Source: an uncultured Candidatus Saccharibacteria bacterium (GTDB taxonomy: Bacteria > Patescibacteriota > Minisyncoccia > 2-02-FULL-40-12 > GWA2-44-9). Taken from it: DNA of 64,000 bases. The notes below the pieces were generated by a model that worked only from the letters and a program-made list of their open reading frames with translations, had not been told where the DNA came from and did not search any database. Below, piece after piece: positions 4,640 to 62,016 of the stretch. Both the position numbers and the translations under genes were made by a program. Where the stretch lies: NCBI GenBank assembly GCA_964436165.1, contig CAYTBY010000001.1:73452-137451 (forward strand), written 5' to 3'. The number at the start of each line of letters is the position of its first letter. Positions within the stretch are counted from its first letter, which is position 1.

Positions 4640-4869
4640 GCTAGGAGTTATGATATATCATAACAACTTGCGCCGCATGGGTTTAATAACTTTTCATGAA
4701 AACTACTAAAGTTAAAAATAAAAAAGAGAACAAAACCGATTGGAAATATTTTGATGATTGTCTGATCTGCAAAGCTATGGAAAAAGCTGATAAGCGGGGT
4801 AGAAATTTGTCTATGGAAGAATTAAAATCAGCATTTAAAGAACAGAATAAGAAAAATAATAAAACTTAA
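4640..4869 (+). repeat. Copy 1 of a duplicated module of about 230 bp (half-palindrome operator plus 57-aa CxxC gene); paralogous to 9380-9618
   Basis: About 85% nucleotide identity to 9380-9600, including gctaggagttatgatatatcataac, atgggtttaataa and the first approximately 90 nt of the small ORF. Confidence 0.7.
4696..4869 (+). CDS. Small lysine-rich CxxC protein (57 aa), hypothetical
   Basis: ORF MKTTKVKNKKENKTDWKYFDDCLICKAM... Its stop TAA directly abuts the ATG of the next gene (translational coupling). Paralog at 9436-9618. Confidence 0.5.
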   Translation: MKTTKVKNKKENKTDWKYFDDCLICKAMEKADKRGRNLSMEELKSAFKEQNKKNNKT

Positions 4870-9379: not shown

Positions 9380-9411
9380 GCTAGGAGTTATGATATATCA
9401 TAACTCCTAGC
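9380..9411. promoter_or_regulatory. Perfect 32-bp palindrome (putative operator) upstream of the small CxxC gene, copy 2
   Basis: gctaggagttatgatatatcataactcctagc equals its own reverse complement. Contains a tatgatat -10-like core. Only the left half is conserved in copy 1 (4640-4664). Confidence 0.55.
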
Positions 9412-9435
9412 ACTGTATGGGTTTAATAATTTTTT

Positions 9436-9618
9436 ATGAAAACCACTAAAGTTAAAAATAAAAAAGAGAACAAAACCGATTGGGAATATTTTGATGATTG
9501 CGGAATCTGCCAGGCCATGAAAGTAGCCGATAAACAAGGAAGAAGTCTATCGGGAAAAGAATTAGCAGAGGCATTTAAGAAGCAGAACAAAAAGAATAAT
9601 GATGAAAAATATAATTAG
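9436..9618 (+). CDS. Small lysine-rich CxxC protein (60 aa), paralog of 4696-4869
   Basis: MKTTKVKNKKENKTDWEYFDDCGICQAM...; N-terminus near-identical to copy 1. Confidence 0.5.
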   Translation: MKTTKVKNKKENKTDWEYFDDCGICQAMKVADKQGRSLSGKELAEAFKKQNKKNNDEKYN

Positions 9619-28882: not shown

Positions 28883-29782
28883 ATGTCAAAAATTTACACA
28901 ATTATGTTTTTTGTTTCGATGGGTCTAACTCTAGGAGCAATTGTTTTGTTTTTAATTTTCGGTTTAAACTTTGGAGTTGATTTTCGGGGCGGCAGTATTG
29001 TGGAATTAGAGTTTTCGAATGAGAAACCGCCGGTTGCTGATGTCCAGGCATATTTAGAAAAAGGTTTATCACTCCACGACTTTAGCTTTAACGAAGTCGG
29101 AGAAATGGGATTGGTGATCAGGTCCGGTAATTTATCCGAAGAAGACCATCAGCAGTTACTAAATATTTTGAAAGAAAAATATTCTGACCAGACGATTGAG
29201 GAAAAGCGGTTTGATTCGGTCGGGCCGATTGTTGGCCAAGAACTTAAAGACATGAGCGTCCGGGGTATAATCATAGCCCTCTTGGTTATAATAATGTATA
29301 TCGCTTATGTTTTCAGGAAGATGTCAGTTGTTTTGTCTTCTTGGGCCATGAGCGTTTCGGCCATGGTTGCTCTTGCCCATGATATTATTATTCCGATTGG
29401 AGTTTTTTCTTGGCTGGGCTATTTTTATAATGTTGAAATAAGCGCCGTCTTCGTGGCTGCCTTATTGACAATCTTGGGTTATTCTGTTTCAGATACAGTA
29501 GTCATATTTGACAGGGTTAGGGAAAATGTTATAAGAAATAGATTGAGGGAGGATTTTGGCAAGGTTGTCCACAAGAGTATTTTTCAAACTCTCACCCGAT
29601 CCCTGAATACGACCTTTACTACCCTCCTGTCATTGATTGCTATTTATCTGTTCGGGGGAGAGAGTCTGAGATATTTTGCCCTGGCTTTGATAATCGGTAT
29701 TTTCTTGGGAGCCTATTCTTCGATATTTGTCGCTTCGCCATTGCTGGTTTGGTGGTCGGGATGGACAAAAAAGAATAGGTAG
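28883..29782 (+). CDS. secF: Protein translocase subunit SecF
   Basis: DFRGGSIVELEF, …VIFDRVREN…; immediately follows secD. An in-frame upstream ATG at 28865 overlaps the secD stop. Confidence 0.85.
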   Translation: MSKIYTIMFFVSMGLTLGAIVLFLIFGLNFGVDFRGGSIVELEFSNEKPPVADVQAYLEKGLSLHDFSFNEVGEMGLVIRSGNLSEEDHQQLLNILKEKYSDQTIEEKRFDSVGPIVGQELKDMSVRGIIIALLVIIMYIAYVFRKMSVVLSSWAMSVSAMVALAHDIIIPIGVFSWLGYFYNVEISAVFVAALLTILGYSVSDTVVIFDRVRENVIRNRLREDFGKVVHKSIFQTLTRSLNTTFTTLLSLIAIYLFGGESLRYFALALIIGIFLGAYSSIFVASPLLVWWSGWTKKNR

Positions 29783-29812
29783 ATTATAATAATTAGGTAT
29801 TATCTAACGGGA

Positions 29813-30961
29813 TTGACTTCTATAACTAATAATGCTATTGTATGTGGAGGTACAATAGACTATCATAGGGTCATGTCAAATCAAGCAGTAATAACCAAAA
29901 CGGTCGCTTCTTTGGTAAAAAATATATCAACTCGCAACAAGGATATTATATCCAGGCGTTTTGGTTTGAAAACAGGCAAAAAGGAGACTCTGGAGTCGAT
30001 AGGCAAGAGCTATGGAATTACCAGGGAAAGAGTAAGGCAGATAGAGGAATTTTCCATTAACCAGTTGTCTAAGGTTGTTGCTTCGACTCCCGATGTTTCA
30101 AAATACGTTTCTTTGGCCAAGGAAATACTAGGCGGTAACGGGGGGGTGATGAGGGAGGCTGAGTTATTTAAAGCATTTAGCGGAAACGATAAGGAGAGTG
30201 TTGTAAATGCCTCGCTTGTTTTTATTCTTTCTCTGGCCGGCGAGCCTGCCTCGCCGACTCGCCTCGCCGAAGCCTCCGGCGTAGCGCGGGCAGGCGGGCC
30301 GGTAAGATTCGGTGAAAACGAGTCATACTATTCCTTCTGGGGTTTAAATAGGGAAAGTGCCGATATGTTTAAAAATGGGATTTCTGCCCTGGTCAGTTCA
30401 TTTGCAAAAAACGGAAGCCCGGTGGCTTATACCGACTTGGTTTCTTTTGCCCAGGCTAACAGCATCTCAAATTCTAAAGACGTTGTGGTTTATTTGAATT
30501 TGAGCAAGGAGCTTGGAAGAAATGTTTTTGGCCAAATTGGTTTAGCCAGTTGGGCCGAAGTAAAACCAAAAGGAGTCAGAGATAAAGCCTATTTGGTTTT
30601 GAAGAAAGAGAAAAATCCAAAACACTTTACCGAGATTGCCAAACTTATAAACTCAACCGGTTTTTCTGATAAGAGAGCTAATGTTCAGACTGTTCATAAC
30701 GAACTGATTAAGGATAAAAGATTCGTTTTAGTCGGCCGTGGAATGTATGGGTTATCGGAATGGGGTTATCAGCCGGGTACGGTCAAAGAAGTGTTGGTCA
30801 GCGTTCTCAAGAACCATGGCAAGCCCTTAGCCAAGGCCGAACTTGTGGCCAAGGTTTTGGATACCCGAATGGTCAAAGAAAACACAATATTATTAAATCT
30901 TCAGGATTCTAAAGTTTTTTCAAAACGGGAAGACGGAACTTACGTCTTAAAAAAGGCGTAA
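29813..30961 (+). CDS. Putative transcription factor: sigma-70 region-4-like HTH near the N-terminus plus C-terminal HARE-HTH-like domain
   Basis: TLESIGKSYGITRERVRQIEE is a sigma-70 region 4.2-type motif. C-terminal WGYQPGTVKEVLVSVLKNHGKPLAKAELVAKVL…FSKREDGTYVLKK is a HARE-HTH-like pattern. The probable start is ATG 29873. Confidence 0.45.
   Translation: MTSITNNAIVCGGTIDYHRVMSNQAVITKTVASLVKNISTRNKDIISRRFGLKTGKKETLESIGKSYGITRERVRQIEEFSINQLSKVVASTPDVSKYVSLAKEILGGNGGVMREAELFKAFSGNDKESVVNASLVFILSLAGEPASPTRLAEASGVARAGGPVRFGENESYYSFWGLNRESADMFKNGISALVSSFAKNGSPVAYTDLVSFAQANSISNSKDVVVYLNLSKELGRNVFGQIGLASWAEVKPKGVRDKAYLVLKKEKNPKHFTEIAKLINSTGFSDKRANVQTVHNELIKDKRFVLVGRGMYGLSEWGYQPGTVKEVLVSVLKNHGKPLAKAELVAKVLDTRMVKENTILLNLQDSKVFSKREDGTYVLKKA
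30233..30305 (+). repeat. GC-rich palindromic element inserted in frame in the 29813 gene (encodes LAGEPASPTRLAEASGVARAGGPV)
   Basis: ggccggcgagcctgcc…cgccgaagcctccggcg…ggcaggcgggccgg has nested inverted repeats. About 75% GC inside an approximately 38% GC gene. Confidence 0.5.
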
Positions 30962-36528: not shown

Positions 36529-36804
36529 TTATTTAACTTTTCTCTCAACGGATGTAAGTCGGACATCTATAGATTCAACTTTGGTTTCCAGTCGTGAAAA
36601 TTCCTTTTTTGAAGGTATTTCTAAAACAACATCGAGAATAGTTTTCAGGGTGCCGTCCATTTTATCAAAGCGGGTATCCATAGCATCAAAACGCTCATCA
36701 ACTTTAGCGAACCGGTTTGCGGTTATTTGAGCCAGAGTATTGAAGCCGACGCTTCGGTCGGCTCCCCGACCTTTCAGCGTCGGGGTTGTCATTTTCTTTG
36801 GCAT
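36529..36804 (-). CDS. Hypothetical protein (91 aa)
   Basis: ORF MPKKMTTPTLKGRGADRS… The start codon directly abuts the conserved inverted-repeat motif (see 36806-36939). Confidence 0.35.
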   Translation of the reverse strand: MPKKMTTPTLKGRGADRSVGFNTLAQITANRFAKVDERFDAMDTRFDKMDGTLKTILDVVLEIPSKKEFSRLETKVESIDVRLTSVERKVK

Positions 36805-36805
36805 A

Positions 36806-36939
36806 CCCAGTAGTGAAACTTCCAGTTGCCTTTAATTTTTTCAATAAAAAGCTAAATAAGAAGTTATTCAATGTTATCTAGTCTTACCCATGATAGTAGA
36901 AATACTGGCTAGAAAAAATCTGGAAGTTCTACTACTGGG
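36806..36939 (-). promoter_or_regulatory. 20-bp inverted-repeat pair (arms 36806-36825 and 36920-36939) in the 5' leader, abutting the start codon
   Basis: cccagtagtgaaacttccag and ctggaagttctactactggg (18/20 complementary), 94 nt apart. The arm next to the ATG matches the motif upstream of ftsW (47846-47864). Confidence 0.5.
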
Positions 36940-37143
36940 CATATTTTAAGTATAAAAAATTGATTGTTAATGTCAAATACTTTTCCCAAAGTGCTTGCCA
37001 CGTGATTGCGTAGCAATTTTACGTGGTCCGTCCACTCACCCTTGGATGGAACACCATAGAACAGCTAGTTTTAAGGTGGCAGCAGGTTTTTAATAGTTTT
37101 GTACCTAGTTTAGCAAGTTAAGATTAATTACTCAAATAAAACG

Positions 37144-37607: not shown

Positions 37608-37639
37608 AAACCTTGAAAAATCGGGTTATTTTAACATTG

Positions 37640-37712
37640 TCCGCCCGGCTGGGATCGAACCAGCGACCACTTGCTTAAAAGGCAATTGCTCTACCAACTG
37701 AGCTACGGGCGG
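37640..37712 (-). tRNA. tRNA-Lys (anticodon UUU)
   Basis: Reverse complement ccgcccgTAgctcagttggtagagcAattgcCTTTTAAgcaagTggtcgctggttcgatcccagccgggcggA. 7-bp acceptor stem, D and T arms, anticodon loop cUUUUaa. CCA not encoded. Confidence 0.85.
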
Positions 37713-47784: not shown

Positions 47785-47800
47785 ATAATTAAGTTATGCC

Positions 47801-47864
47801 AGGTAGTAGAAGTTCCGAATACCTGGCTGGCGGCTTAAATTTATCGGAACTTTCACTACCTGGA
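47801..47864 (+). promoter_or_regulatory. Inverted-repeat pair in the ftsW leader (arms about 47801-47819 and 47846-47864), abutting the start codon
   Basis: ccaggtagtagaagttccg … cggaactttcactacctgg (17/19 complementary). Motif shared with 36806-36939. Confidence 0.5.
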
Positions 47865-51695: not shown

Positions 51696-53807
51696 TTATT
51701 TGTTTAGGGGGGCTAGATCACTCTTTATTTTTCTTATCTGCTCCCTTAGCGTCAAAGCTCTGTCGTACTCCATTTTTTTGGCGGCCCGTTCCATCATTTT
51801 GGTAAGTTGAGCGACAATCTTGCCTTTACTGCTATTACCAAAAACAAAAACCGTATCATCTTCTTCCTGGCCCCAACGACGAGTTTTACTAGTTCCATTA
51901 TTGGAAATCGGGAGGTCAAAATTACTAATTGATTTTTGAATGGTTGTTGGCGTAATGTCGTTGGCTTTATTGTGCTCTTCCTGTTTGGTTCTTCGGCGCA
52001 TGGTTTCGCCGATCGAAGCTTTAATTGATTTAGTCAACTTATCGGCATACATAATAACATGCCCGTTAACGTGTCTGGCCGCTCGGCCCATAGTTTGGAT
52101 TAGCGTCGTGGTATTGCGGAGGAATCCTTCTTTATCGGCGTCGAGGATGGCGATCAGTGAAACTTCAGGCAAATCCAAGCCTTCTCGCAAAAGATTTACT
52201 CCAACTAAGACATCATGGTGGCCCAGGCGGAAGTCCTTTAATATTTTTAATCGTTCAAGGGTTTTAATCTCAGAATGAATGTAGTTAACTTTTATTTTGG
52301 CATCGGCCAGATACTCCGATAAATCTTCGGCCATTCTCTTGGTTAAAGTGGTAACGATAACCCTTTCTTTATTCGCAGTCCGCTTTTTAATTTCTGAAAG
52401 CAGGTGTTCCATCTGATTTTTGCTAGGTTGTATTTCTATAGTCGGATCTAAGAGTCCTGTCGGCCGGATAAGCTGTTCGGCAATATTTGCTTTACCGGCC
52501 TTTTCAAGTTCATATATTCCGGGTGTGGCTGAAACATAAACTGTTTTCTGTATTCTTTTATTAAATTCTAAAAACTTTAACGGCCGGTTATCAAGGGCTG
52601 ACGGCAAGCGGAAACCGTAGTCAACTAGGGTGCTTTTTCTGGAATGATCCCCGTTAAACATTCCCCTGATCTGGGGAATAGAAATATGCGACTCGTCCAT
52701 AATGGTCAGGAATTCCCCCTTTGATCCGCCTTTGGCGGAAAAGAAATCAATCAGGGTATAGGGCGGTTCGCCAGGTTTGCGGAAATCAAGATGCCGCGAG
52801 TAGTTCTCAATGCCGTGGCAGTAGCCGGTTCGTTTCATCATGTCAATGTCGTACATTGTTTTTTCGTAAAGCCGGGCCGCTTCCTGGAGTTTTTTGGCTT
52901 TCTTTAAAACTTTCATTGTTTGCTGAAGTTCGCCTTTTATATTTTCTATAGCGATGGCAATTTTACTATCCGAAGTCAGCCAGTATTTTGCCGGTAGAAT
53001 TGTGGTTTCGACTATTTTTTCAAACTCAGGTTCTTTGGTTTCAAGTTCTTCCGGTTCAGAGATAGTGGCATGCATGACTTTGATCCCGTACGAAGTAGCC
53101 GCGCTGCGGTCCTTAGGACTCGCGACGAAGTCGCGAGCGCGACTTCGTACGGGATTATCCATGCTATTATTCGGAAACGTTATTTTAAAAATATTCTGGC
53201 CATCGGGGCCCATCAGTTCTATTTCATTTCTTGTTTTTCGGAAACATCCGCGCTTCAATTCTATATCTTGGGCATACTGGAGCCGTATCAATCCGCGGAT
53301 AAGTTCGTCCGGTTTTATTTTCTGGCCTTCAAATATGTTGAGGCCCATGTTTCTATATTCTTCCGGTGAGCCAAGGTTGTAGATGCAAGAAACAGAGGCG
53401 ACAATAATTACATCATCTCGTGACATTAAGGCTTGGGTTGTGGCATGGCGAAGCCGGTCAAGCTCCTCGTTTATTTTAGAATCTTTTTCGATGTAGGTGT
53501 CAGTGTGAGGTATGTAGGCTTCGGGCTGGTAGTAGTCGTAATATGAAACGAAATAATGGACGGCGTTGTGCGGGAAAAATTCTTTGAATTCTTTATATAA
53601 TTGGGCGGCGAGGGTCTTGTTGTGGGAAATAATCAGAGTTGGTTTCTGGTACTGCTCAATGACTTTAGCCATCGTAAACGTTTTTCCGCTTCCGGTTACA
53701 CCCAAAAGCACCTGGTGTTTTTTCCCGGACTTTAATCCCTTGGCGAGTTGTTGAATCGCCTGTGGCTGATCTCCTGTTGGCGAATATTTTGATATCAGTT
53801 TAAACAC
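51696..53807 (-). CDS. uvrB: Excinuclease ABC subunit B
   Basis: GVTGSGKTFTMAKVIE, YFVSYYDYYQPEAY, …GYCHGIENYSRHLD…; full length, about 45 aa longer than typical in domain 2. Confidence 0.9.
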   Translation of the reverse strand: MFKLISKYSPTGDQPQAIQQLAKGLKSGKKHQVLLGVTGSGKTFTMAKVIEQYQKPTLIISHNKTLAAQLYKEFKEFFPHNAVHYFVSYYDYYQPEAYIPHTDTYIEKDSKINEELDRLRHATTQALMSRDDVIIVASVSCIYNLGSPEEYRNMGLNIFEGQKIKPDELIRGLIRLQYAQDIELKRGCFRKTRNEIELMGPDGQNIFKITFPNNSMDNPVRSRARDFVASPKDRSAATSYGIKVMHATISEPEELETKEPEFEKIVETTILPAKYWLTSDSKIAIAIENIKGELQQTMKVLKKAKKLQEAARLYEKTMYDIDMMKRTGYCHGIENYSRHLDFRKPGEPPYTLIDFFSAKGGSKGEFLTIMDESHISIPQIRGMFNGDHSRKSTLVDYGFRLPSALDNRPLKFLEFNKRIQKTVYVSATPGIYELEKAGKANIAEQLIRPTGLLDPTIEIQPSKNQMEHLLSEIKKRTANKERVIVTTLTKRMAEDLSEYLADAKIKVNYIHSEIKTLERLKILKDFRLGHHDVLVGVNLLREGLDLPEVSLIAILDADKEGFLRNTTTLIQTMGRAARHVNGHVIMYADKLTKSIKASIGETMRRRTKQEEHNKANDITPTTIQKSISNFDLPISNNGTSKTRRWGQEEDDTVFVFGNSSKGKIVAQLTKMMERAAKKMEYDRALTLREQIRKIKSDLAPLNK
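53088..53153 (-). repeat. 66-bp GC-rich nested-palindrome element inserted in frame in uvrB (encodes VRSRARDFVASPKDRSAATSYG)
   Basis: cgtacgaagt…gtccttaggac…tcgcgacgaagtcgcga…acttcgtacg. Outer 10-bp inverted arms plus two internal perfect palindromes. About 68% GC inside an approximately 40% GC gene. Confidence 0.6.
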
Positions 53808-54810: not shown

Positions 54811-55827
54811 ATGAAATCATTCCTACAAACTAAAGAGTGGTTGGAGTTTCAGAAGGAAGTAGGCCACAAGACGTGGCGATTTTCGAATGGCCCTACTTCG
54901 CTAGGAAGCTTCGAAGGGCAAGGAAAAATAACGGCCAATATTATTAAACTGGGTTTGCCTTTGGGCAAGAGTTTTTTATATATACCTCATGGGCCGGAGA
55001 TTGATTTTAATAAGATTCAAAGCGGATTGAAAAATGAACTGGCGAATTTCGTAAAATATTTAAAGGACTTAGCTAAGGCGGAAAAAGCCATTTTTATAAA
55101 AATAGAACCTTTTTCGGACGTAGTCATTGAGCTTTTGCATGTCAAAGGAATGCGCCGGTCATCCAAACAAATCCAGCCGTATAAAACGGTGGTTCTTGAT
55201 TTAAGTTTACCTGAAGAGCATTTACTGGGGAAAATGCATGCTAAGACAAGGTATAATATTAAAGTTGCTGAGAACAACGGCATTGTTGTTAAGGACAGCA
55301 ACGATCTAGATACTTTTTGGAAATTATTAGGCAAGACGACAAAGCGTGATAGATTTGCCAGTCATCCTAAAGTTTATTATAAAAAACTGCTGGAGCATTT
55401 TCCCGCCGAAGGCGGATCCGCCTCTGGCGGAAATGATATGAAAGTCGATTTGGTTATGGCGTACCTGCCCGCCGGACAGGAGGGTCATAACGATCGGGCT
55501 GTGGCCGGAGCAATATTGATGACTTATGGTGATACCTGCTATTATCTTTACGGTGCTTCTGACTATGAGTACAGGTCGGTAATGGCCCCATATGCGCTTC
55601 ACTGGGAGAATATAAAGTATTTGAAAGGTCGAGGTATAAAATACTACGATTTTTGGGGGATTGATGCCCAGAAATGGCCAGGGGTGACGAGATTTAAACT
55701 TGGTTGGCTTGGCTCGCCGAAGTCAGACGAAGGCGGCGGGGGACTAAAAGAATATCCCGGTTCCTTTGATTTAGTTACCTCTAAATTTTGGTATTTTGTT
55801 TATAACATTGCCAGAAAAGTATTTTAG
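54811..55827 (+). CDS. FemAB-family peptidoglycan aminoacyltransferase-like protein
   Basis: N-terminus FLQTKEWLEFQKEVGHKTWRF resembles FemX/FemAB starts. Length and tandem GNAT-fold pattern are consistent. Contains a Gly-rich insert (GGSASGGND) over the DNA palindromes ccgccgaaggcgg/gcggatccgc. Confidence 0.5.
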   Translation: MKSFLQTKEWLEFQKEVGHKTWRFSNGPTSLGSFEGQGKITANIIKLGLPLGKSFLYIPHGPEIDFNKIQSGLKNELANFVKYLKDLAKAEKAIFIKIEPFSDVVIELLHVKGMRRSSKQIQPYKTVVLDLSLPEEHLLGKMHAKTRYNIKVAENNGIVVKDSNDLDTFWKLLGKTTKRDRFASHPKVYYKKLLEHFPAEGGSASGGNDMKVDLVMAYLPAGQEGHNDRAVAGAILMTYGDTCYYLYGASDYEYRSVMAPYALHWENIKYLKGRGIKYYDFWGIDAQKWPGVTRFKLGWLGSPKSDEGGGGLKEYPGSFDLVTSKFWYFVYNIARKVF

Positions 55828-58475: not shown

Positions 58476-59321
58476 TTGTATAAATCGAAATCATTAATAA
58501 CGCTAGTTATCGGCGGCGTTCTTATGGTCGGTGTCGCCTTAGGTTCTTATATGTCAAGCGGATCGGTTCCGTTTGCTTTTGCCCATGATGATGACGATGA
58601 TGAGCAAAAAGTAGATAAAGAAGTTCTAGAGCAGTTATATTTGGCCGCTTTCGGCAGGCCGGTTGATGAGAATGGCAAGAAGTTCCATCTTGGTAAAAAT
58701 TTGAAACAAGTTTTAAGAGACATCAATAGCTCCGAAGAGCGAAGATACTATTCGGCTTTATTTAAGGCCGTAAAGGCCTATGAAGAAGCGGTGCGAGCGC
58801 CAGGTGATTTGAGCGCGGCTGATAAACAGAAATATCTTGATGCTATCAATACGGCTCTTGCAACTTTACTAGCCTGGGTTGAGACATTGCCTCAACAGCA
58901 CATTTGTAATGGAGTGGTCGGAATTATGGAGGCCCGTCAAGCTATTCAGGATGCGTATGATCGTATGAGCCCCACTGCCCAAGCTGCATCTCGAAAAGGA
59001 ATTTTCAATGCCCTGAAGCATATCGGTGGTCCTAAGAATATTGATTTACCGTTTAAGCGTTGTATAGATCCAAGCCCAACCCCGTCCCCATCTGTAAGCC
59101 CGACACCTTCAGTAACACCAACCCCAAGTGTAACTCCAACCCCGAGTGTAACCCCAACACCGAGTGCAACTCCAACCCCGACTCCTTCTGCAACTCCCAC
59201 TCCCACTCCCACGCCCTCCGCAACTCCCACCCCGACACCCGAAGTAACCCCGACTCCCACTCCGTCAGCTACCCCAACCCCGACTCCATCAGTCACTCCG
59301 ACTCCGACCCCTACTCCGTAA
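58476..59321 (+). CDS. Secreted protein with C-terminal Pro/Thr/Ser-rich tandem-repeat tail
   Basis: TTG start with RBS aaggaagg. Signal-like N-terminus. C-terminal (PTPS[VA]T)n for about 80 aa. Confidence 0.5.
59071..59318 (+). repeat. Coding tandem repeat (about 18-nt units) encoding the PT-rich linker
   Basis: ccaaccccgagtgtaactccaaccccgagtgtaacccc… repeated, degenerate. Confidence 0.7.
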
Positions 59322-60091: not shown

Positions 60092-60465
60092 ATAAAAAAA
60101 GCCCTCATCTATAGCTTCAAAAGCTAAAACTATAGATGAAGGCGGGAGAGATGAAACTCTCCCGTTGCTGGGGCGTTTAGGTCCCAGCTACCCACCGCCG
60201 GAAGGGTTGTTAACGCATAACCATCGCCACCTTTCTGATCGGCCGGACAAGCTATGAATGAGCTATCCGGGAAGCGCCCATTTGGCCTCGGCTTTTGGTA
60301 CTTGCTTATTTTTTAGGCGGACCTCTTGATCTGGCCACGTGAAATCCATTCGCGTAGCCCGTCCCGCGACATTGCGAGGACCGGGAATGTTGAGCCAGTC
60401 GGGGCTCAGAAAAGGTCTCTTCTGCTTATAGCAGTTTCGTGAGACCTTTTCTGAGCCTCTATTTG
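60092..60465 (-). ncRNA. Candidate structured non-coding RNA of about 375 nt (identity unresolved)
   Basis: No ORF of at least 60 codons. 17-bp perfect stem ggctcagaaaaggtctc/gagaccttttctgagcc with a nested ctgc-ttata-gcag. Further perfect hairpins: cgggagag/ctctcccg, gctggg/cccagc, gtcc…ggac. At the low-coordinate end, a hairpin plus U-run that is a terminator only on the minus strand. Confidence 0.3.
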
Positions 60466-60558: not shown

Positions 60559-62016
60559 ATGCTCAAAGAAAGTAGTTTAGACAAAATACTTTATAGAGTC
60601 AAGAAGCTGATTCCGGGATCAGTTTTTAATTTTTTTCAGCCGTATTATCACGCTGTCTTAGCTTATGCCGGTGCGGCTTTTTACGGTTTTCCGTCAAGAA
60701 AATTAAAAGTTATTGGTGTGACCGGAACAAAAGGCAAGTCAACCGTTGTTTATCTGGCTTCTAAATTATTAGAAGCCAGGCTTCAAGGTGGACAGAAGCC
60801 TGGCTTCGGGAAGAGTGGAGTCGCCGCTTGCGGTTCCCTTGGTTTTAAAATAAAGAGTAAGGAATGGCCAAATACTTTAAAAATGACTATGCCCGGCCGG
60901 TTTCGTCTGCAGAAACTCATGGCCGAAGCGGTTAGGGCCGGCTGTGAATACTTTATTCTTGAAGTTACCTCCGAGGGCATCAAACAGAAAAGGCATTTGG
61001 GTATTTGGTTTGATTGCGCCGTTTTTACCAATCTTCACAAAGAACATATTGAAAGCCACGGTTCATTCGAGAATTATTATCAGGCCAAGCAGGAATTATT
61101 CAGGCGGACAAAAAATATCCATGTTATCAATGCCGATGACCAGTATACCAAATTATTAGGTGATTTTCCGGCTGAACATAAAATATTTTACGGTTTTACC
61201 AAAGGTGACTTGGTTGCCGGTAATTTAAAACTTTCTGATCTCGGTTCTTCTTTTGAGGTTTATGGTACGACTTATAATATCCACCTGGCCGGGAAGTTTA
61301 ATATTTTAAATTGTCTGGCTGTTTTATCGATCGGCGCGATGTATGGCATAGATCTGCCCTCGGCAAAACATATACTAGAATCAGTCAAATTTATCCCTGG
61401 CAGAATGGAGTTTATCCCTGCCTTCGTTAAAACTTCGGCGGGCGAGCAAAAAGAACCGTTCAAGGTGGTGGTGGATTATGCACATACACCCGAGTCGTTA
61501 CGAAGTGTTTATGAAACGTTAAAAAATAGTCCTCTTTCGCGCAAGGCTTCGGAGGACGCCCAAAATACAAAACGTAAGCTTATATGTATTTTGGGCGCTG
61601 CCGGGGGCGGGAGGGACAAGTGGAAGAGGCCGGAGTTTGGGAGAATAGCGGCGCAGTACTGTGATGAAATAATTCTGACGAATGAAGACCCCTATGAAGA
61701 AAACCCAGAAGCAATTCTGGAAGAAATTGCTTCTGGGTTTTCGCAAGCGCCAAATCACAAATCATCCCGATTTTATCGAGGATCCTCGATTGCAAAGCAA
61801 TCGGGACAAATCACAAATAAATCCCAAGCTCCAAATGTCCAAAAAATTATGGATAGAAAAGAAGCCATAAAGAAGGCCTTGACTTTAGCTCAAGAGGGTG
61901 ATACTGTAATCATCACGGGCAAAGGTTCGGAGACTTCAATGGCCGTATCGGGGAATAGGAAAATTCCCTGGTCGGACAAGGGAGTTATTGAGGAGTTTTT
62001 GACGACGAAATACTGA
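60559..62016 (+). CDS. Mur ligase family protein (MurE-like)
   Basis: VIGVTGTKGKSTV (P-loop), …DYAHTPESL…; carries two in-frame repeat insertions (61529-61558 and 61751-61818). Confidence 0.7.
   Translation: MLKESSLDKILYRVKKLIPGSVFNFFQPYYHAVLAYAGAAFYGFPSRKLKVIGVTGTKGKSTVVYLASKLLEARLQGGQKPGFGKSGVAACGSLGFKIKSKEWPNTLKMTMPGRFRLQKLMAEAVRAGCEYFILEVTSEGIKQKRHLGIWFDCAVFTNLHKEHIESHGSFENYYQAKQELFRRTKNIHVINADDQYTKLLGDFPAEHKIFYGFTKGDLVAGNLKLSDLGSSFEVYGTTYNIHLAGKFNILNCLAVLSIGAMYGIDLPSAKHILESVKFIPGRMEFIPAFVKTSAGEQKEPFKVVVDYAHTPESLRSVYETLKNSPLSRKASEDAQNTKRKLICILGAAGGGRDKWKRPEFGRIAAQYCDEIILTNEDPYEENPEAILEEIASGFSQAPNHKSSRFYRGSSIAKQSGQITNKSQAPNVQKIMDRKEAIKKALTLAQEGDTVIITGKGSETSMAVSGNRKIPWSDKGVIEEFLTTKY
61751..61818 (+). 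mobile_element. MITE-like element inserted in frame in the Mur ligase gene: 12-bp direct repeats flanking a 40-bp palindromic core
   Basis: caaatcacaaat | cat-cccgatt-ttATCGAGGATCCTCGATtgcaaagc-aatcggg-a | caaatcacaaat. Encodes HKSSRFYRGSSIAKQSGQITNK between duplicated SQAPN. Confidence 0.6.

Follow-up and report, generated by a model that had tools for sequence, protein, structure and literature searches.

A stretch of 64,000 nucleotides (nt) from contig CAYTBY010000001.1 of an uncultured Candidatus Saccharibacteria bacterium, called the window throughout, carries a gene for a protein with Sigma70_r4 and HARE-HTH domains (the HTH gene), whose coding sequence is extended by a short GC-rich segment containing inverted repeats. 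The segment is a real and lineage-specific feature, and its parts, together with the native codons that enclose them, are arranged as follows.

29876-30961, plus strand: host gene, Sigma70_r4 and HARE-HTH protein (Pfam matches)
30236-30244, plus strand: native left arm GCCGGCGAG, codons A-G-E, from folds of orthologue DNA without insert
30244-30295, plus strand: middle stem, GCCTGCC (30244-30250) with GGCAGGC (30289-30295), perfect 7-bp pairing
30245-30298, plus strand: insert of 54 nt (18 codons) relative to orthologues without insert, 80% GC, encoding PASPTRLAEASGVARAGG
30248-30273, plus strand: 13-nt tandem direct repeat GCCTCGCCGACTC / GCCTCGCCGAAGC with a 10-nt exact core, from a repeat search
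30257-30289, plus strand: 33-nt core specific to the window, from orthologue comparison, boundary ambiguous by about 1 nt
30265-30281, plus strand: innermost hairpin CGCCG-AAGCCTC-CGGCG, from the minimum free energy (MFE) structure
30299-30304, plus strand: native right arm CCGGTA, codons P-V, from orthologue DNA

The host protein comprises 361 amino acids (aa) counted from the ATG, with the reading frame open from a TTG at 29813, and its Sigma70_r4 and HARE-HTH domains cover residues 18-64 and 236-296, respectively. The gene is conserved across Paceibacteria-type bacteria of the candidate phyla radiation (CPR); a protein search returned 7972 homologues, with thousands from Patescibacteria and with Yanofskybacteria and Taylorbacteria among the relatives.

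Composition, fold and repeats of the insert

The window has a GC content of 41.7% (60-nt windows: mean 0.417, s.d. 0.085), and the stretch 30233-30306 reaches 78%, in line with the roughly 75% given by an earlier, sequence-only reading of this DNA. It is the biggest GC island of the window, and just seven islands with a GC content of 75% or more over 45 nt are found in 474 kb of related CPR loci. Position 30233 is the first base of a codon and the stretch translates in frame to LAGEPASPTRLAEASGVARAGGPV, which bears out the Ala/Gly/Pro-rich in-frame coding described by the same reading. Third codon positions are G or C in 14 of 19 codons, compared with 9.4 expected from codon usage in the window (p = 0.027), and the GC excess stems mostly from the Ala, Gly, Pro and Arg codons themselves.

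The segment had also been placed between two domains of the protein. In an AlphaFold2 model (22 homologues in the alignment; mean predicted local distance difference test score, pLDDT, of 78.7) the inserted residues are located instead between a helix (residues 109-121) and a β-strand (residues 143-145) of a middle helix/β module, with pLDDT values below 50 at residues 125-138, i.e., predicted disorder. The model thus depicts a disordered surface loop and not a classic inter-domain linker, and the insert peptide, lying in such a loop, is therefore probably, or at least plausibly, tolerated.

Outer and inner inverted repeats are both present, as originally described: the outer arms (30232-30250 and 30289-30307) are 19 nt long and 79% complementary, and they are accompanied by the GCCTGCC/GGCAGGC stem and the CGCCG...CGGCG hairpin listed above. 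The arms are composite, the outer 6 bp being native codons (GCC GGC GAG and CCG GTA) and the next 7 bp belonging to an older 21-nt insert that is described below. Measured by its MFE, the 73-nt stretch has a z-score of -2.3 (p = 0.026) and a 91-nt stretch one of -1.65, with 13 of 200 shuffles folding equally well, and inverted 5- to 7-mers show no enrichment over dinucleotide shuffles (p 0.22-0.43). The inverted repeats thus exist, but as a statistical property the palindromic character is weak, only slightly above chance for so GC-rich a sequence. Direct repeats are enriched over dinucleotide shuffles (p 0.02-0.05).

The repeated motifs are short, with periods of 5, 8 and 13 nt in the added DNA. 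The native sequence CGGCGAG (30238-30244) recurs in inverted form, CTCGCC(G), at 30250, 30258 and 30263, GCCTCGCCGA recurs within the insert at a 13-nt period, and CCGGCG, GCGGGC and GGCCGG have two occurrences each in the insert region. When 6-mers are taken from the 30 nt on either side, in direct or inverted form, they cover 26 of the 54 inserted nt, compared with 7.6 in dinucleotide shuffles (p = 0.002). The longest direct match between the 33-nt core and the flank is 9 nt (p = 0.026), and the core includes a 9-10-nt copy of the preceding sequence. By the same measure of flank coverage, the palindromic element located in the uvrB gene of this window scores zero. The 54-nt insert is flank-derived and the uvrB element is not, and local generation is therefore favoured over import by a mobile element; this contrast is the main reason for the preference.

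Insert states among orthologues

All observed states of the insert, 0, 5, 6, 7, 13 and 18 aa, share exactly one position, LAG(E)|PVRF. Among the 120 best homologues most have no insert, including all of the more distant ones, a minority carries 5-7 residues with the consensus PAS[PS]xGG (as in PASPVGG), one protein (P0019) has 13 residues, and the window alone has 18. The outgroup state is no insert (LAGE|PVRF). The bounds of the 54-nt insert were set by codon-level comparison with the related loci L104, L094, L109, L087 and others. An in-frame insertion, as had been proposed, is thus confirmed across these homologues and is lineage-specific, with the restriction that just the middle 33 nt are specific to this genome; most homologues being without the insert, the linker is not conserved, so that the proposal also withstands the orthologue alignment.

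In genes without insert, the codons GCC GGN GAR CCG GTN amount to a 5-bp CCGG/CCGG hairpin with a 4-nt loop, and a hairpin GCCGG-NGAR-CCGGT is found in six of nine such orthologue DNAs (fold z-scores -2 to -3.3). The 21-nt form occupies the loop of this native hairpin, adjoining its 3' arm, and is a hairpin on its own (CCTGCC-loop-GGCAGG or GGCGGG). With the adjoining codons it reads as follows.

L101: GAG CCT GCC TCG CCA GTA GGA GGG CCC GTA
L082: GAG TTT GCC TCG CCG GCA GGC GGG CCT GTC
L108: GAA CCT GCC TCG TCG GTA GGC GGG CCT GTC

Removal of the 33-nt core from the window sequence leaves CCT GCC TCG CCG GCA GGC GGG, i.e., the 21-nt form of L082, which closely resembles those in L101 and L108. 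Inspection of the sequences shows that CTCGCCGGCAGG in the 21-nt form of L082 agrees at 10 of 12 positions with the inverse of the upstream CTTGCCGGAGAG. The 33-nt block is in turn placed in the loop of the 21-nt hairpin, and adds the third hairpin, CGCCG-AAGCCTC-CGGCG.

From one state to the next the predicted stability rises from about -9 to -15/-23 and on to -47 kcal/mol, so that a hairpin is predicted in all three states, and some lineages keep a stem with different sequences (CCGCC/GGCGG in L099, GCCGC/GCGGT in L081). Both observations would suit a functional nucleic-acid structure, either an mRNA hairpin that pauses ribosomes between folding units or a selected DNA cruciform or protein-binding site. 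We consider such a function highly improbable: the insert is absent from most orthologues, the 21-nt forms fold with z-scores of -0.2 to -2.8, mostly unremarkable values, a search of 29700-30500 against Rfam gave no match at E<=1, and no terminator-like tail follows the hairpin. Conservation at synonymous sites is not significant overall; third positions in the shared 21-nt part are identical in five of five cases both between the window and L108 and between the window and L082 (p ~0.03 each), the other 26 pairs show no such effect, and once multiple testing is allowed for, conservation in this part does not differ significantly from that elsewhere in the gene, where an excess would have indicated recent spread or selection on structure.

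The gene tree points to a high turnover. On a neighbour-joining tree of 67 orthologues, calculated with the linker columns left out, 21 sequences carry an insert and their distribution is patchy. Presence and absence take 16 Fitch parsimony steps (14-16 over 20 bootstraps), compared with a mean of 18 and a minimum of 14 for shuffled tips; the step count lies near the shuffled-tip value, and the presence of the insert is therefore almost uncorrelated with phylogeny. L108 (P0009, with insert) and L109 (P0018, without) share 85.6% nt identity and differ here by one clean 21-nt gap, and the nearest relative of the window, P0004/L104 with 89% aa identity, has no insert.

These states also bear on an ordinary expansion of the linker at the protein level, in which selection would favour a longer flexible Ala/Gly/Pro/Ser loop, the hairpin and the GC content being codon by-products. 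Such an origin would account for the predicted disorder, for a GC excess that resides mostly in codon positions 1 and 2 with a modest excess at third positions (p = 0.027), and for third positions in the shared 21 nt whose conservation does not consistently surpass that elsewhere in the gene. We nevertheless judge it quite unlikely, as most of the family is without the insert and close relatives gain or lose it freely, which argues against a selected function, as repeats derived from flanking DNA are unexpected under selection on the peptide, and as the other window-specific inserts are hairpin-prone as a class (see below). Disordered low-complexity linkers of cryptically simple sequence arise by slippage, and the insert resembles these in its reiterated short-period motifs, its biased amino acids and its disordered loop of varying length among orthologues, but differs from them in having an inverted (hairpin) component and a precise anchoring in the loop of the native CCGG hairpin.

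Probable local hairpin growth and the mobile uvrB-type element

We read the insert, with moderate confidence, as the outcome of a nested, locally templated hairpin expansion, in frame, at an indel hot spot in a permissive loop. The small CCGG/CCGG hairpin is formed by the ancestral A-G-E-P-V codons (GCC GGN GAR CCG GTN), and its loop contains, in one clade, a GC-rich 21-nt segment that is itself hairpin-forming (CCTGCC-TCGCC-GGCAGG-CGGG; PASPxGG) and whose many gains or losses on the gene tree amount to at least 14 changes among the 67 relatives. In this genome, the loop of the second hairpin contains another 33 nt, so that three stems are nested, and the added DNA is made up of direct and inverted repeats of the neighbouring motif CGGCGAG/CTCGCC. 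From the sequences we infer replication slippage, intrastrand template switching (snap-back copying), or both, at the quasi-palindrome as the mechanism; selection would leave just those length changes that are multiples of three, and the Ala/Gly/Pro/Arg composition would follow from the GC-rich hairpin DNA and would not be a selected protein feature.

Hairpin-creating insertions and coding changes are well known to arise by template switching at quasi-palindromes (PMC8794818, PMC8604942, PMC7202029), and the insert belongs in kind to a known class of mutation. As in quasi-palindrome (QP) mutations, such as those at the E. coli QP hot spots or those arising by hairpin-creating short-range template switching (PMC7202029, PMC8794818, PMC8604942), an imperfect inverted repeat is already at the site, the inserted DNA repeats its surroundings in direct and inverted form, the hairpin becomes longer or more stable with every step, a single site is affected repeatedly, and the coding sequence can be altered in frame. 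The present case is set apart by the size of the gains (21 nt, then 33 nt) and their nesting three deep, by an insert for which manual parsing gave no single four-point event, and by an unusually high turnover.

Several points weigh against local growth. Manual parsing gave no single slippage or four-point template-switch event that yields the 33 nt, and therefore either several steps took place or later substitutions have obscured the history. The longest single inverted match to the flank is just 7 nt (p = 0.24), the signal being the number of short matches. Furthermore, a short motif of the insert, CTCGCCGAAG, occurs four times in 582 kb (the window and 107 related loci) where 0.47 occurrences are expected, a demonstrably mobile palindromic element is present in the same genome, and the patchy 21-nt form could have come from repeated site-specific insertion instead. 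A low-copy mobile family is an outside possibility, given that the search of the source genome covered 64 kb. A single tandem duplication was also considered as the origin and rejected: the 13-nt repeat alone would shift the frame, and the history therefore needs further steps.

The mobile element just mentioned is the insert in uvrB, of which further copies are found in related loci.

53083-53155, minus strand: insert inside uvrB (51696-53807)
L106, 2413-2485 (P0127): copy at the same place in uvrB, 93% identity
L105, 6670-6742 (P0128): copy in opposite orientation at a different codon, 89% identity over 73 nt
L081, 1250-1321 and 1362-1440: one copy at the secF 3' end, one intergenic, upstream of the HTH gene
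L089, 1332-1411: copy upstream of the HTH gene
L106, 422-498: copy near a gene end
L095, 3921-4037: copy with terminal inverted repeats only, around an AT-rich core

The window copy is strongly palindromic, with 17-nt terminal inverted repeats in 94% agreement (ATCCCGTACGAAGT/ACTTCGTACGGGAT in this type of element) and fold z-scores of -6.2 to -6.9. The element folds into a three-way junction with a GAGTCCnAAGGAC hairpin; this fold is common to five copies and shows compensatory changes in 6 of 30 pairs. An empty uvrB site is present in L107, the L105 copy encodes IPYKVASPRSQGLATKSRARLRTG, which corresponds to the window copy read on its reverse strand, and the orthologue alignment reveals an insertion hot spot at the uvrB site as well. 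Rfam holds no match to the element. Judging from its copies, it looks like a genuine mobile family in Patescibacteria, akin to a miniature inverted-repeat transposable element (MITE) or a Rickettsia palindromic element (RPE), and appears mechanistically unlike the HTH insert. The sequence-only reading had regarded the two as the same phenomenon with different sequences. Only the latter part holds: a covariance model of the uvrB-type element (R1) finds nothing at the HTH site, whereas the uvrB insert is structured, multi-copy, mobile and unrelated to its flanks, and the HTH insert is single-copy and built of flank motifs. A diverged uvrB-type element was accordingly rejected as the identity of the HTH insert, R1 giving no match at 30233-30305 with filters off even at E<=10, compared with 98.7 bits for the uvrB copy.

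L081 (1362-1440) and L089 (1332-1411) have an intergenic copy of the element at the corresponding position, and its right terminal repeat is matched by TCTAACGGGAT at 29803-29815 of the window, just upstream of the HTH gene; this sequence probably represents a deletion remnant of a uvrB-type element. The HTH gene is neighboured by secF on one side and a DUF8128/TrwB-like pair on the other, an arrangement also seen in L099.

The HTH insert could alternatively be a small palindromic element that is mobile and belongs to another family than the one in uvrB, i.e., a MITE- or RPE-like selfish hairpin inserted in frame, with the 21-nt forms as internally deleted remnants or excision footprints. This genome and its relatives do hold a mobile 73-nt palindrome with in-frame insertions in both orientations, the remnant TCTAACGGGAT indicates that such elements can be deleted down to short pieces, the insert has a patchy distribution on the tree, CTCGCCGAAG is common to two other GC-rich inserts, and by size the insert ranks low among the window-specific inserts and the uvrB element. 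The empty sites in orthologues are clean (those without insert read GAG|CCG GTN), and intermediate lengths of 5-13 aa occur too. The insert is, however, single-copy in all data searched, its supposed arms are native codons and an older insert, its inverted-repeat content is at chance level, and it significantly resembles its flanks, which the mobile uvrB element does not. No target-site duplication was recognised at the insert, and the 7-aa forms with identical boundaries across clades are better explained by descent from a shared 21-nt form than by separate decay of 54-nt ones. We regard this explanation as unlikely.

The search for copies comprised the 64-kb window, in which no second copy of the arm was found with up to 3 mismatches, and the 582 kb, in which blastn-short returned none; the arm search suggested by the sequence-only reading was thus carried out at this scale and gave no second copy. 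Two exact scans of viral contigs gave 0 matches. A six-frame peptide query against 5.8 billion proteins had no match and missed the source protein itself, and is thus insensitive. The best off-site blastn-short match, an exact 15-nt match to the left arm (GCCGGCGAGCCTGCC) at 4243-4257 of L038, was rejected as a second copy, as it lies in another frame in the conserved C-terminal GPPASLP motif of the neighbouring DUF8128-family protein, in a different CPR genome, and was judged coincidental.

GC clusters and double-hairpin elements of fungal mitochondria are repeated mobile families in AT-rich genomes. The HTH insert shares with them the appearance of a GC-rich hairpin island in a genome richer in AT, sometimes within coding regions, and departs from them in that the genome is moderately AT-rich (42% GC) and that the insert is without repetition in the data searched. 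RPEs (Ogata et al. 2000 and 2002, as summarised in PMC10969869) are elements of about 100-150 bp; they occur as multi-copy families with a conserved encoded peptide and bear no relation to their flanking DNA. The insert is likewise a palindromic segment in frame in a housekeeping gene of a reduced genome, in a surface loop compatible with the protein fold, but it is 54 nt long, single-copy in the data searched and flank-derived. It is the neighbouring uvrB element, and not the HTH insert, that behaves like an RPE.

Further inserts and repeats in the window

Comparison of the window proteins with those of the syntenic relatives L099, L105, L106, L107 and L081 revealed further window-specific in-frame inserts, four in a FemAB-like gene and four or five in a Mur ligase gene.

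54883-54924, 55402-55434, 55465-55485 and 55708-55734: inserts in the FemAB-like gene (54811-55827), relative to L105, L106 and L107
60781-60819, 61417-61446, 61531-61575 and 61765-61842: inserts in the Mur ligase gene (60559-62016)

Several of these are palindromic or contain inverted copies of their flanks. In the FemAB-like gene, the insert at 55400-55433 forms an almost perfect GC-rich palindrome, CCGCC-GAA-GGCGG ATC CGCC-TCT-GGCGG (z-score -3.3), and that at 55708-55734 has CTCGCCGAAG in common with the HTH insert. The first Mur ligase insert (region 60772-60807; z-score -4.1) repeats the adjacent native GAAGCCAGGCTTC exactly in inverted form, as GAAGCCTGGCTTC; at 61531-61575 the insert and its flank share an inverted match of 13 nt, and the insert at 61765-61842 has two hairpins and repeats 12 nt of its flank in direct orientation. 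Taken together, ten window-specific inserts have a mean fold z-score of -2.39, compared with -0.16 for 150 random coding segments from the same genes, each relative to its own shuffles (Mann-Whitney p = 1e-4).

Three of the four occurrences of CTCGCCGAAG lie in GC-rich in-frame inserts, namely in the HTH gene, in the FemAB-like gene (55713) and in a TatD gene of L064, and TTGGCTCGCCGAAG is common to the latter two. This sharing could reflect a common motif of hairpin growth (CGCC...GGCG stem, GAAG loops) or a low-copy family. The L064 insert (1779-1824), GC-rich and in frame, is located in a TatD-family gene of an unrelated CPR genome; it carries TTGGCTCGCCGAAG...CGAAGGC as in the FemAB insert at 55708-55734 and CTCGCCGAAGCC as in the HTH insert, and both it and the FemAB insert have an inner hairpin between CGAAG direct repeats. 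For these two inserts too, the likeness in CGAAG/TTGGCTCGCCGAAG may stem from a shared growth motif or from membership of a small family of elements.

A genome-wide process in this CPR lineage, which would seed and enlarge small GC-rich hairpins in coding loops alongside the uvrB-type mobile palindrome, and of which the HTH insert may be one product, is put forward tentatively, as a prospect that is possible and short of probable. Either very small hairpin elements that propagate themselves as a family, or a defect in repair or replication by which palindromes grow in hairpin loops, could underlie it. If it exists, Patescibacteria would be the second case after Rickettsia of palindromic DNA that routinely colonises protein-coding genes. 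CPR genomes are minimal and assumed to be streamlined; this one carries a mobile 73-nt palindrome and about ten window-specific in-frame inserts which are hairpin-forming as a class. Under our preferred reading of local growth, the HTH insert itself would be a natural example of nested hairpin growth becoming protein sequence, at a hypervariable site of in-frame indels, and is of interest mainly for mutation mechanisms. The tendency to hairpin inserts together with a new mobile palindrome family in a CPR lineage is the wider and more interesting lead: if general, it affects the alignment and annotation of CPR proteins, supplies markers for strain typing, and offers a second system, besides Rickettsia, for how selfish or error-born palindromes become parts of proteins.

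Other repeats were seen in the window. Perfect inverted repeats of 18 nt at 61699-61742 and of 17 nt at 60403-60457 are situated inside the Mur ligase coding sequence and just upstream of it, respectively. A repeat of about 60 nt in two intergenic regions, 4640-4700 and 9380-9440, consists of a 32-nt palindrome, GCTAGGAGTTATGATA|TATCATAACTCCTAGC, followed by ATGGGTTTAATAA, and could be an operator/promoter module or another small repeat family. The inverted-repeat pairs at 36803-36942 and 47799-47863 have related arms, CCAGTAGTGAAACTTCCAG and CCAGGTAGTAGAAGTTCCGA, a similarity that suggests a further repeat family; the sole tRNA gene in the window (37639-37712) lies away from both. A GC island of non-palindromic type is found at 59175-59269, in the open reading frame 58476-59321, where a C-rich low-complexity sequence encodes a Thr/Pro repeat (ACTCCCACTCCCACTCCCACGCCC...).

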